From the sequence record PZ386965.1: a stretch of 64,000 bases of DNA; one strand, written 5' to 3'. The notes under the pieces were generated by a model. That model was not told the origin of the DNA. It saw only the letters and a list, made by a program, of their open reading frames with translations, and did no database searches. Source of the DNA: a phage. Of this stretch, positions 14,931 to 19,454 are shown piece by piece (the first letter of the stretch is position 1; the number at the start of each line of letters is the position of its first letter). The position numbers and the translations under genes are program-made.

Positions 14931-15599
14931 TTATTTTAATGTTACGAAAGAAGAATTACGAGTTTCACGAATTAGAACTGATCCATCGCGATTAATATAA
15001 TAAATTAAGCTAAATAATGTTTGGTGAGCAGAAGCATGCACAAAACTAGTTGGGCGAGATTTCCAATCTGGGGTTTCGGCTATCCATTGATAAATCCACC
15101 AAGGAACAGTAACATACCCTGGGCCTTTGCCTAATTTAATGAGTGTAGGACTAAAATTTTCAGGCAGAACAAAATTTACTTCTTTATTTACCTCTGTCTC
15201 AGGCTCTTTTTCAGATTCAACAACACGAGTAATTGCTTCTTCGAATTTATCGTGGTCGAATTCTTTTTCTTGTTCAACAACTTCTAATACTTCAACTTGT
15301 TCTGTCGGAGAATCAAACAACAGAATAGCTTCTTCTTTAACTTCTTCGTTGGTGAAATTAACACCATCCACATCATCTGCGGCAGTAATTAAATCGGTGA
15401 TAGATAATCCATCAGTTTCAGGTAATGGTTCATCAGCCAGTGCGTTAAGAGCTTCTTCGATATCAATAACAATATTATCGAATGATTTTGTTTTCTTAAC
15501 ACTAATACCAAATTGTTCCGCATATTCAAACAGTTTAGCTTTGGCTTCCTTTTTATCAGAAAGAGCACGTAACTCTTCAATATAGTCTTTATCGATCAT
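14931..15599 (-). CDS. inh: Inh, inhibitor of prohead protease
   Basis: 222 aa, acidic, T4 Inh size and position next to hoc. Confidence 0.85.
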   Translation of the reverse strand: MIDKDYIEELRALSDKKEAKAKLFEYAEQFGISVKKTKSFDNIVIDIEEALNALADEPLPETDGLSITDLITAADDVDGVNFTNEEVKEEAILLFDSPTEQVEVLEVVEQEKEFDHDKFEEAITRVVESEKEPETEVNKEVNFVLPENFSPTLIKLGKGPGYVTVPWWIYQWIAETPDWKSRPTSFVHASAHQTLFSLIYYINRDGSVLIRETRNSSFVTLK

Positions 15600-15612
15600 G
15601 ATATTTCCTCAT

Positions 15613-15620
15613 TATAAATA
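15613..15620 (+). promoter_or_regulatory. T4 late promoter upstream of uvsW
   Basis: TATAAATA about 30 nt upstream of the ATG. Confidence 0.6.
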
Positions 15621-15649
15621 TAACTATATTTATTACATGGTAATTTGAC

Positions 15650-17164
15650 ATGACTGACATTAAAGTACATTTTTATGATTTTAGTCACGTGCGCATTGAA
15701 TGCGACGAAAGTACGTTTTACGAACTTCGTGACTTTTTTAGCTTTGAAGCTGACGGGTATAAATTTAACCCAAAATATCGCTATGGGCATTGGGATGGTA
15801 GAATTCGACTTTTAGATTACAACCGTTTGTTACCATATGGACTTGTAGGTCAAATAAAAAAGTTCTGTAACAATATGAGTTATTCTGTATGGATTGACCC
15901 TAAAATCTTTGAGACTGAAGACCTTACCAGGGAAGATTTTGACGCGTGGCTTTCTAAACAAGAAATTTATTCAGGCAACGCCAAAATCGAACCACATTGG
16001 TATCAAAAAGATGCAGTATATGAAGGTCTGGTTAATCGTCGTCGAATTTTAAACCTTCCGACATCAGCAGGTAAATCACTAATACAAGCACTTTTAGCTC
16101 GGTATTATCTAGAGAACTATGAAGGTAAAATTCTCATTATCGTCCCTACAACAGCATTGACAACCCAGATGGCTAATGATTTTGTTGATTATCGCTTGTT
16201 TAGTCATTCGATGATTAAGAAAATTGGCGGTGGTGCTGATAAAGCGGACAAATCTAAAAACGACGCTCCAATTATTGTTGGCACATGGCAAACGGTAGTT
16301 AAGCAGCCTAAAGAATGGTTCTCTCAGTTCGGTATGATGATGAACGATGAATGCCACTTAGCAACAGGCAAAAGTATTTCTTCAATCATCTCAGGATTAA
16401 ATAATTGCATGTTTAAATTCGGTTTATCTGGCTCATTAAGAGACGGAAAAGCCAATGTAATGCAGTACGTAGGTATGTTCGGCGAAATCTTCCGTCCTGT
16501 TAGCACGTCTAAATTAATGGAAGACGGACAGGTAACTGAGCTTAAGATTAATAGTATTTTCCTTCGTTATCCGGACGAATTCACTGTTAAATTAAAAGGT
16601 AAAACATACCAAGAAGAAGTTAAAATTATTACCGGACTAAAACGACGTACAAAGTGGATTGCTCAACTTTCGGTCAAATTGGCTAAGAAAGACGAGAACG
16701 CCTTTGTAATGTTTAAACACGTTACACACGGTAAAGAAATATTTGAAGCTATTAAAGAGCTTGGATACGAAAAAGTTTATTACGTATCAGGTGAAGTTGA
16801 TACTGAAACACGTAACGCGCTTAAAGTCATGGCAGAAAATGGTAAAGGCATTATTATTGTTGCATCATATGGAGTATTCTCTACTGGTATTTCAGTTAAG
16901 AATCTTCATCATGTTATTTTTGCCCATGGTGTTAAATCAAAAATTATCGTACTTCAAACCGTAGGTCGTGTGCTTCGTAAGCATGGTTCTAAAGCTGTTG
17001 CTACAGTTTGGGATCTCATCGATGACGCAGGTGTAAAACCTAAATCATTAAATACTAAAAAGAAGTATACTCATCTTAATTACTTGTTAAAACACGGTAT
17101 TGATCGTATCCAACGTTACGCTGATGAGAAATTTAACTATGTAATGAAAACAATTAATTTATAA
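15650..17164 (+). CDS. uvsW: UvsW RNA-DNA and DNA-DNA helicase
   Basis: 504 aa, T4 UvsW-like; SF2 helicase motifs (TSAGKS Walker A, DECH box). Confidence 0.93.
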   Translation: MTDIKVHFYDFSHVRIECDESTFYELRDFFSFEADGYKFNPKYRYGHWDGRIRLLDYNRLLPYGLVGQIKKFCNNMSYSVWIDPKIFETEDLTREDFDAWLSKQEIYSGNAKIEPHWYQKDAVYEGLVNRRRILNLPTSAGKSLIQALLARYYLENYEGKILIIVPTTALTTQMANDFVDYRLFSHSMIKKIGGGADKADKSKNDAPIIVGTWQTVVKQPKEWFSQFGMMMNDECHLATGKSISSIISGLNNCMFKFGLSGSLRDGKANVMQYVGMFGEIFRPVSTSKLMEDGQVTELKINSIFLRYPDEFTVKLKGKTYQEEVKIITGLKRRTKWIAQLSVKLAKKDENAFVMFKHVTHGKEIFEAIKELGYEKVYYVSGEVDTETRNALKVMAENGKGIIIVASYGVFSTGISVKNLHHVIFAHGVKSKIIVLQTVGRVLRKHGSKAVATVWDLIDDAGVKPKSLNTKKKYTHLNYLLKHGIDRIQRYADEKFNYVMKTINL

Positions 17165-17189
17165 GGGCTTCGGCCCTTAGGAGATAAAA

Positions 17190-17423
17190 ATGGTACTTGA
17201 ATTTAAACAATTTTTATACGAAGCATCTATTGACGAATTCATGGGTAAAATTGCTAATTGTCATACCCTAGAAGGGCTTGAAGAATTGGAAGCTTATTAT
17301 AAGAAACGTATAAAAGAAACGGAATTAAAAGATACAGATGATATTTCTGTCAGGGATGCCTTAGCAGGTAAGCGTGCCGAACTTGAAGGCGACGATGATG
17401 AGGATGAGGAAGAAGACTTCTAA
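17190..17423 (+). CDS. uvsW.1: UvsW.1 small acidic protein
   Basis: 77 aa, acidic C-terminal tail, immediately after uvsW. Confidence 0.8.
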   Translation: MVLEFKQFLYEASIDEFMGKIANCHTLEGLEELEAYYKKRIKETELKDTDDISVRDALAGKRAELEGDDDEDEEEDF

Positions 17424-17481
17424 TTAAAAAAAGGCCCGACCTTTTTGGAAGGGCCAAAAACCATAGGCAAAAAAGGTAACA

Positions 17482-17649
17482 CTATAGTAAAAGTTGGGTT
17501 TCGTTCAATTGCTCTTCTGAACTTTCTGAAACCGGCAATTGTTGTACATAATTATAACAAGGACCAGGATGTGCTGGACCTTTGTCTGTTTCAACAACCA
17601 ATGCAGAATCGATTGGAGTTTTACAGACAACACAAATCTTATCTGACAT
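17482..17649 (-). CDS. small Cys-containing protein (55 aa), not in the ORF track
   Basis: ATG preceded by GGAGG; translation MSDKICVVCKTPIDSALVVETDKGPAHPGPCYNYVQQLPVSESSEEQLNETQLLL; CxxC plus downstream Cys suggests a zinc ribbon; fills the gap before the next minus-strand ORF. Confidence 0.5.
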   Translation of the reverse strand: MSDKICVVCKTPIDSALVVETDKGPAHPGPCYNYVQQLPVSESSEEQLNETQLLL

Positions 17650-17681
17650 GATTGCCTCCTAAGTTGAAATTACATATCTAT

Positions 17682-17906
17682 TTATACTACTCGCATGCAC
17701 ATATCAATACCCATATCTTTTGTATAAAAATACTCGTCGATGTACCCAGCAAACTTCCCTTTAATATAAAGGACGTCTTCACCACAAGGGTGGTCTGCCA
17801 GGATACGAATATCCTGACGTCGTAGACGATACTTTTCCATTAAGAATTTAATTTCGGTTTCAAATTCTTCATCATTATTAAAGGCATCTTCAATTGAATA
17901 ACGCAT
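17682..17906 (-). CDS. hypothetical protein (uvsY.-1/-2 type)
   Basis: 74-aa ORF, ATG start, directly downstream of uvsY on the same strand. Confidence 0.7.
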   Translation of the reverse strand: MRYSIEDAFNNDEEFETEIKFLMEKYRLRRQDIRILADHPCGEDVLYIKGKFAGYIDEYFYTKDMGIDMCMRVV

Positions 17907-18319
17907 TATTGCCCCGCTTCAAATTCTCGCATATCTTGAATATGTTTAAGTGCAAAACTACGAGACTTAACTGCGTCAAGTGCCCCACTACAGAACTCAA
18001 GTAAAATTCCCCAGTATTGTAAAGTAGTCTCTATTTTAAGCACATCTTTATCTGCAGCCAGGACAGTTTTCATTTCAGATTTCTCATATCGGTCCATACT
18101 GAATTCATCACCATCACCTCGTCCCGAGTAGTAGTCTAATCTTGCTTTTAGAGCAGTTTTCTTCTGAGTCTCTATACGCAACATTTCTTTACGAATAAAT
18201 GAGTGCTTACGTAGCCATTTGCTGTATAACTTAACATTATTCGCCGTTTCATATTGCAACTTTGTCGTATCAATAGCTAAGTCTGCGTCTAACTCTTCCT
18301 GTAAATCTTCCAGCTTCAT
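17906..18319 (-). CDS. uvsY: UvsY recombination mediator
   Basis: Internal ATG gives a 137-aa product starting MKLEDLQEEL, matching T4 UvsY; MotA-type middle promoter upstream. Confidence 0.92.
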   Translation of the reverse strand: MKLEDLQEELDADLAIDTTKLQYETANNVKLYSKWLRKHSFIRKEMLRIETQKKTALKARLDYYSGRGDGDEFSMDRYEKSEMKTVLAADKDVLKIETTLQYWGILLEFCSGALDAVKSRSFALKHIQDMREFEAGQ

Positions 18320-18373
18320 AATGTTCTCTCTTTTAACTAATAATCTCCCGGCTGTATCGGAAGGACCTAAAAC

Positions 18374-18401
18374 CATTATACATAGGTTGCCTTGAAGCAT
18401 T
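18374..18401 (-). promoter_or_regulatory. MotA-dependent middle promoter for uvsY
   Basis: Minus strand AATGCTTCA MotA box, 12-nt spacer, TATAAT. Confidence 0.55.
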
Positions 18402-19442: not shown

Positions 19443-19454
19443 TATTTATAAATA
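19443..19454. promoter_or_regulatory. overlapping divergent late promoters for genes 26 and 51
   Basis: TATTTATAAATA contains TATAAATA on both strands. Confidence 0.65.

Follow-up and report, generated by a model that had tools for sequence, protein, structure and literature searches.

Whether the gap between the convergent genes uvsW.1 and uvsY.-1 of a T4-like phage contains a gene, which gene it is, and what its product may do are the questions raised by a 55-codon reading frame on the minus strand of the window, i.e., the whole analysed stretch of 64,000 nucleotides (PZ386965.1). A preliminary description, based on the letters of the sequence, presented this frame as an unannotated Cys-rich ORF with a strong ribosome-binding site in a gap of about 250 nt, and suggested that it belongs with the small genes of the uvsY.-1/-2 type and encodes a zinc ribbon. 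The gap measures 258 nt from the stop of uvsW.1 (17423) to the stop of uvsY.-1 (17682), and the frame and its ribosome-binding site are present as described. The features of the locus are as follows.

15650..17164, plus strand: uvsW
17190..17423, plus strand: uvsW.1, 77 aa, the convergent neighbour at the terminator region (Pfam UvsW-1, PF11637, E=3e-26; synteny)
17482..17649, minus strand: coding sequence of the uvsY.-2 ortholog, 55 codons and a TAG stop (Pfam DUF2685, phrog_1043)
17655..17660, minus strand: Shine-Dalgarno sequence AGGAGG, 5 nt 5' of the ATG at 17649, read from the sequence
17682..17906, minus strand: uvsY.-1 ortholog, 74 aa (phrog_1541), the upstream neighbour, in one transcription unit with uvsY.-2
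17906..18319, minus strand: uvsY, 137 aa, first gene of the uvsY/uvsY.-1/uvsY.-2 unit (T4 annotation)

Identity and coding status of the frame

The frame starts with the ATG at 17649, ends with the TAG at 17484..17482, and is translated into MSDKICVVCKTPIDSALVVETDKGPAHPGPCYNYVQQLPVSESSEEQLNETQLLL. Its start signal is a rare one, as both strands of the 64-kb window together contain the pattern GGAGG-N4-9-ATG just five times. Beyond uvsY the window continues with gp25, gp26, gp51 and gp27; together with uvsW, uvsW.1, uvsY.-1 and uvsY, these gene neighbours mark it as DNA of a T4-like phage. The exactly corresponding slot of the T4 reference record is occupied by uvsY.-2 (T4p185, NP_049797.1, 114496..114663, 55 aa), and the two proteins are 93% identical. 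The window protein matches Pfam family DUF2685 (PF10886) over profile positions 1-55 of 55 (E=9.9e-32, 109.4 bits against a cutoff of 25) and PHROG 1043 (phrog_1043) over its full length; the DUF2685 match is also found in all 59 divergent relatives that we collected. Several Escherichia Tequatrovirus genomes carry this region with 99% identity.

The window gene and its T4 counterpart share length, genomic slot and orientation, as well as the Shine-Dalgarno sequence, an upstream TATAAATA and a downstream terminator; they differ by four amino acids (V26A, I35V, K36Q, E37Q), none of them at an invariant position. The frame is the counterpart of T4 uvsY.-2 in a different Tequatrovirus, and we regard this identity, along with the coding status discussed below, as close to certain. 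The assignment to the small uvsY.-1/-2 type genes was thus correct. The word 'unannotated' applies to the mechanical ORF track and not to the public records, T4 included, where the gene goes by the names 'uvsY.-2', 'putative 6.1 kDa protein' and 'hypothetical protein'; the label of the T4 product is 'uncharacterized 6.1 kDa protein in uvsW-uvsY intergenic region'. The gene is not new: it is already annotated and has Pfam and PHROG families of its own.

Length of the frame is only weakly significant, since 3.7% of shuffles (748 of 20000) that preserve the composition of the gap also contain an ATG ORF of at least 55 aa. One may ask, then, whether the frame is no gene at all, with conservation in this place belonging to the 68-codon ORF on the plus strand (17445..17651, TTG start) or to a non-coding feature, such as a terminator, a promoter or an RNA. 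The modest improbability of the length is compatible with this explanation; so are the plus-strand ORF, which covers the same DNA in the window, and the real non-coding signals on both sides. Comparison of the relatives, however, is decisive. We drew on GenBank phages and IMG/VR for 50 related loci, which with the window make 51 sequences, 43 of them distinct at the DNA level. The minus-strand frame is intact and begins with ATG in 51 of 51 sequences (43 of 43 distinct ones), and most of them have a GGAG, GAGG or AGGA motif at an equal distance from the start; in a few distant relatives the motif is weaker or missing. Pairwise dN/dS has a median of 0.17 (Nei-Gojobori, 316 usable pairs); in the comparison with T4 it is 0.06 at dS of 0.54, within a reported range of 0.06-0.2. 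Synonymous variation is abundant at invariant residues: four codons are used for Gly29, both TGT and TGC for Cys31, and six for Leu48. The plus-strand frame, in contrast, is open in just 12 of the 43 distinct sequences and contains stops in the other 31, T4 among them. Rfam has no family match in the uvsY.-2 region, and knock-down of the T4 gene is rescued by the protein supplied in trans (see below). On this comparative evidence, uvsY.-2 is a genuine gene whose protein product evolves under purifying selection. The stops rule out the plus-strand ORF as a real gene, as the preliminary description, which called it implausible, had supposed; that description had left the choice between the two frames to their conservation in related phages, and the relatives clearly favour the minus-strand gene. 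Conservation of the minus frame, its dN/dS, the synonymous variation and the plus-frame stops together refute the notion that the frame is not a gene, to which we assign a practically negligible probability.

Predicted signals for expression of uvsY.-2

Three elements in the vicinity of the gene are likely to govern its transcription.

17679..17686, minus strand: predicted late promoter TATAAATA, an exact match to the T4 late-promoter consensus, 37 nt upstream of the ATG
17426..17455, minus strand: intrinsic-terminator-like hairpin with a T7 run, seen in the RNA fold (GGCCC...GGGCC at 17455..17433, T-run at 17432..17426)
18375..18399, minus strand: middle-promoter-like site upstream of uvsY (MotA box TGCTTCA at 18399..18393, 12-nt spacer, TATAAT at 18380..18375)

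The TATAAATA element (17686..17679) overlaps the stop codon of uvsY.-1 and is followed, after 18 nt, by AGGAGG (17660..17655). The same octamer occurs 19 times in the window, where 7.4 occurrences would be expected; it is found upstream of uvsY.-2 in T4, too, and most enterobacterial relatives, including those with a different gene on the upstream side, have conserved the form (T/A)ATAAATA 23-41 nt before the ATG. We predict that it serves as uvsY.-2's own late promoter.

At the other end of the gene, the T-run of the hairpin ends 2 nt from the stop of the convergent uvsW.1. A simple terminator scan missed this hairpin because of its long interrupted loop. A hairpin with a T-run follows the stop of uvsY.-2 in most relatives, and the stem sequences vary while the pairing is kept (GGCCC/GGGCC, GCCCC/GGGGC, GCCCCTC/GAGGGGC, GGCTCTCC/GGAGAGCC); it would end the uvsY/uvsY.-1/uvsY.-2 transcription unit.

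The site at 18375..18399 corresponds in place to oriF as annotated in the T4 record, and it is probably the equivalent of the T4 uvsY middle promoter/oriF, the architecture of which has been described (PMC3016281); in T4, uvsW is a late gene (PMC3016281). These signals suggest two modes of transcription, both of which would end at the conserved terminator: a middle mode, in which polymerase reads through into uvsY.-2 from the MotA-dependent promoter of uvsY, and a late mode that uses the gene's own TATAAATA.

In the mechanical ORF list, uvsY appears as a 164-aa ORF from an ATG that overlaps the stop of gp25 (18319..18400, minus strand). The additional 27 codons cover the MotA box and the TATAAT; the true start of uvsY is Met28 of the listed ORF, at 18319, which gives the protein of 137 aa. 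Elsewhere in the window, at 19443..19454, two copies of TATAAATA overlap on opposite strands in the short stretch from which genes 26 (minus strand) and 51 (plus strand) diverge, and look like back-to-back late promoters.

A predicted zinc module and an acidic tail

An alignment of 59 divergent representatives of the family, clustered at 50% identity, divides the protein into two parts.

17539..17649, minus strand: predicted treble-clef zinc module, codons 1-37, with ligands C6, C9, H27 and C31
17485..17538, minus strand: acidic tail, predicted to be disordered, codons 38-55, with the invariant E42 (pLDDT 56-68)

C6, C9, C31 and E42 are invariant in all 59 sequences, and K10, G24, H27 and G29 nearly so. 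In two members (P0079 and P0081), Cys takes the place of H27; a swap of His and Cys is typical of metal ligands. The spacing of the ligands in the family is C-x2-C-x(15-20)-[H/C]-x3-C. In the AlphaFold2 model, pLDDT is about 83-90 over residues 1-40 and falls to low-confidence values in the tail. The modelled chain consists of a CxxC knuckle, a β-hairpin (residues 19-26) and, starting just past H27, a helix (30-37) with C31 in its first turn. The only structures that it resembles are treble-clef zinc fingers (eL24, LIM, FCS/TRASH, YacG), every match being weak; eL24/Rlp24, zf-HIT, HNH-associated fingers and CsfB/Gin are among these structural matches, and the sub-threshold matches in Pfam are to zf-FCS, zf-FLZ, LIM, C1 and DUF2175. 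The family profile, searched against the sequences of PDB chains, had no significant match.

The preliminary description inferred a zinc ribbon from the CxxC and the distal Cys. The metal site stands as a prediction; the ribbon does not. A classical zinc ribbon has two knuckles (CxxC...CxxC), each on a β-hairpin, whereas the second ligand pair of UvsY.-2, H-x3-C, sits at the start of a helix, and a CxxC knuckle combined with a second pair spaced by three residues at a helix N-terminus is the ligand pattern of treble clefs. Ligand conservation and the model strongly suggest that the first ~37 residues form a zinc-stabilised C2HC treble-clef mini-domain with C6, C9, H27 and C31 as ligands, and zinc binding itself is predicted with good confidence. 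Among the closest known systems are treble clefs of the FCS/TRASH/MYM and eL24 types (zf-FCS PF06467, zf-FLZ PF04570 and the N-terminal domain of eL24).

The remaining 18 residues (38-55) most probably form an acidic disordered tail with a conserved hydrophobic L-L-L end. The invariant E42 lies in the motif ...V/L-S/T/N-E-S..., and the C-terminus conforms to [E/D]-x-[Q/E]-[L/M]-[L/I]-[L/M/I], in the window ...E-x-Q-L-L-L. The protein as a whole is acidic: median pI in the family is 4.5, net charge of the N-domain is -2, median net charge of the tail is -4, and K10 is the only conserved basic residue. The single-stranded DNA-binding protein SSB of E. coli ends with ...DDDIPF, and T4 gp32 has an acidic C-terminal domain. 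UvsY.-2 has in common with these tails an acidic disordered stretch, a few hydrophobic residues at the end and a replication/recombination context, a likeness in composition only; it has no OB fold, and its E-x-Q-L-L-L motif differs from both.

UvsW.1 (17190..17423, plus strand) also has an acidic run followed by Phe at its C-terminus (...GDDDEDEEEDF), which recalls the C-terminal tails of the SSB type, so that the products of both small convergent genes, UvsW.1 and UvsY.-2, carry acidic tails with hydrophobic residues at the end.

In size and in the layout of finger plus tail, UvsY.-2 is similar to YacG of E. coli (PDB structures: 4tma, chain I, and 1lv3), an endogenous zinc-finger inhibitor of gyrase. 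YacG is a C4 protein with an FCS motif and a Trp-containing tail, in contrast to the C2HC site and ...E-x-Q-L-L-L C-terminus of UvsY.-2. Homology of the two was considered and rejected: although the ligands align in register, the probability given by hhalign is 3.5%. We know of no evidence that UvsY.-2 touches gyrase.

A treble clef might also bind nucleic acids, and UvsY.-2 might then be a small DNA or RNA factor that regulates UvsY or UvsW, or serves as their cofactor, by acting directly on recombination intermediates, oriF R-loops or mRNA. Treble clefs associated with RNA or DNA (eL24/Rlp24, zf-HIT and HNH-associated fingers) are among its closest structural matches, and the gene belongs to the recombination/replication-origin module, beside oriF and uvsW. 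Such a function, however, is poorly served by a 35-residue acidic finger followed by an acidic tail, in a family that is uniformly acidic and conserves one basic residue, and none of the DNA-binding Pfam families is matched above threshold. Taken together, the acidity of the whole protein, with K10 as its only conserved basic residue, and the hydrophobic motif at the C-terminus make protein binding likelier than nucleic acid binding, and we consider a nucleic-acid-binding finger quite unlikely.

Distribution of uvsY.-2 and its possible roles

A tblastn search with the window protein found the gene in 1251 phage records (phages of Escherichia, Shigella, Klebsiella, Acinetobacter, Vibrio, Aeromonas, Yersinia, Salmonella and others). 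A divergent DUF2685 member used as the query retrieved 178 records, from Klebsiella, Enterobacter and Cronobacter phages, which may partly overlap the 1251, at least some of them having been missed by the window query. UvsY as the query found 1379 records, so uvsY.-2 is about as widespread as UvsY among the Straboviridae (non-cyanophage T4-like phages), and it is present in essentially all Straboviridae examined. An exhaustive profile search of 1.8 billion representative proteins produced 65 clusters only, nearly all of them stand-alone proteins of 50-65 aa. In cyanophage S-SSM6a (locus L052, 2441..4317), no DUF2685 gene is found between uvsY and the directly following, co-directional uvsW. 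DUF2685 seems to be confined to non-cyanophage T4-like phages.

Gene order over the 50 loci, local exceptions aside, is uvsY, then uvsY.-1 (often absent), then uvsY.-2, facing the convergent uvsW.1 and uvsW. In every locus examined uvsY.-2 lies between uvsY (or gp25) and the convergent uvsW, and in most of them it is the last gene of the unit that runs in the direction of uvsY; a few distant phages have extra small ORFs between uvsY.-2 and the flanking genes. The other neighbours differ: in Vibrio phages, uvsY and uvsW are near uvsY.-2 and the baseplate genes are not, and in Acinetobacter phages uvsY is not adjacent, with uvsY.-2 still between gp25 and uvsW. The uvsY/uvsW recombination module is therefore the most constant association of the gene. 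Presence of uvsY.-1 is patchy (about 11 of the 50 related loci) as against that of uvsY.-2, which is in all; in several loci the space around uvsY.-1 holds other small ORFs or a homing endonuclease.

Function of the T4 gene has been addressed in a 2025 knock-down screen, CRISPRi-ART, where dCas13d guides directed at the ribosome-binding site of uvsY.-2 put it in the 'Semi-Fit' class (score 1.12, KS p 0.12; PMC11879866). The defect was confirmed by single-guide plaque assays, and uvsY.-2 in trans restored both plating efficiency and plaque size (PMC11879866). The effect is modest, with the KS p of 0.12 in the pooled screen. A search of the literature on the function of DUF2685 or uvsY.-2 found nothing beyond this study. 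In the same screen uvsY and uvsW scored 'Not Fit' (PMC11879866), and the difference between this score and 'Semi-Fit' argues against UvsY.-2 being a mere accessory of UvsY and UvsW.

How could so small a protein contribute to phage fitness? We tentatively propose, as one possibility among several, that UvsY.-2 is a protein-docking adaptor. Such an adaptor or inhibitor would place its zinc module on a conserved partner and insert its C-terminal ...E-x-Q-L-L-L peptide into a hydrophobic groove, in the manner of the SSB and gp32 tails or of the YacG tail on gyrase. The likeliest partner would come from the replication/recombination/repair machinery (UvsW, UvsY, gp32, a topoisomerase or an equally conserved host enzyme), a guess that relies on the fixed position between uvsY and uvsW in phages of hosts from Vibrio to Escherichia; any one specific partner is improbable. 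Taken as a whole, the explanation that combines a uvsY.-2 ortholog, a zinc treble clef with an acidic tail and an adaptor mechanism is one towards which we lean slightly.

The partner could instead lie outside the phage's own recombination machinery. As a host-takeover or anti-defence protein, UvsY.-2 would inhibit a host enzyme or an immune sensor, for instance gyrase, like YacG, or a sigma factor, like CsfB. YacG, a gyrase inhibitor, and CsfB/Gin, an anti-sigma factor, are both among the structural neighbours, alike in size and in the layout of finger plus tail; the authors of the CRISPRi-ART study suggested host defence systems as possible targets of uncharacterised Semi-Fit genes, and knock-down of uvsY.-2 was stronger in effect than that of uvsY or uvsW (PMC11879866). 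Anti-defence genes, however, are usually patchy and located in variable regions, whereas uvsY.-2 is near-universal in Straboviridae of very different hosts and has a fixed place in a core module, so that any host target would itself need universal conservation; the sequence relationship with YacG, moreover, is not significant. We judge this reading unlikely.

A bolder form of the adaptor proposal, which we offer as a long shot, is a YacG-like 'plug-and-tail' regulator: made at middle and late times, the finger and the E-x-Q-L-L-L peptide would clamp a conserved DNA enzyme and help to time the switch from origin-dependent to recombination-dependent replication. Candidate targets would be the UvsW helicase, the UvsY/gp32 hub, a type II topoisomerase, or a clamp- or SSB-binding pocket of the host. 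If true, this would add a previously unrecognised, near-universal part to the T4-type replication/recombination machinery.

The discovery value of the locus is small, as T4 annotation has included the gene for decades and both Pfam and PHROG already have a family for it. What is added is a sharper description, namely a spread like that of UvsY, a predicted C2HC treble-clef site with a His/Cys swap, a conserved C-terminal motif of the docking type and an apparent late promoter of its own. Given that the T4 gene contributes to phage fitness in the 2025 knock-down screen, this near-universal, fitness-relevant protein of 55 residues is a tractable target in the search for a missing player in the best-studied phage replication/recombination system.

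Several departures from the common form of the gene and of its neighbourhood were also seen. In Proteus phages (Bragavirus; Pm5461, locus L051, 1501..1881), the DUF2685 ORF is 126 aa long, owing to a 72-aa N-terminal extension (phrog_26998) that overlaps the stop of uvsY. The extension contains TATAAATA and an internal ATG preceded by AAGGA, signals which suggest that these phages may make a 54-aa DUF2685 product too. We considered the extension as a possible fusion clue, and it gave no functional hint: it is not similar to UvsY.-1, and its sole PHROG match is to its own family. A 67-aa DUF2685 protein (P0003), 91% identical to the window protein and marked 'partial', is assigned by NCBI to Enterococcus faecalis; as DUF2685 is otherwise restricted to T4-like phages that infect Gram-negative bacteria, it is probably a phage contamination or comes from a mis-assigned contig.

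In T4, the homing endonuclease gene segE is located between inh and uvsW (locus L001, 58..675). The gene is absent from the window, where only about 50 nt (15596..15650) separate the inh-like ORF (14931..15599, minus strand) from uvsW, which starts at 15650 on the plus strand. Finally, the T4 RefSeq record (L001, 678..2441) annotates uvsW as a single read-through of 587 aa that includes uvsW.1 (...KTVNLISFGPLEKKMLLEFKQ...), and itself flags sequence discrepancies in the uvsW/uvsW.1 section; in the window (17123..17245), uvsW ends after ...KTINL, and uvsW.1, of 77 aa, begins in another frame.
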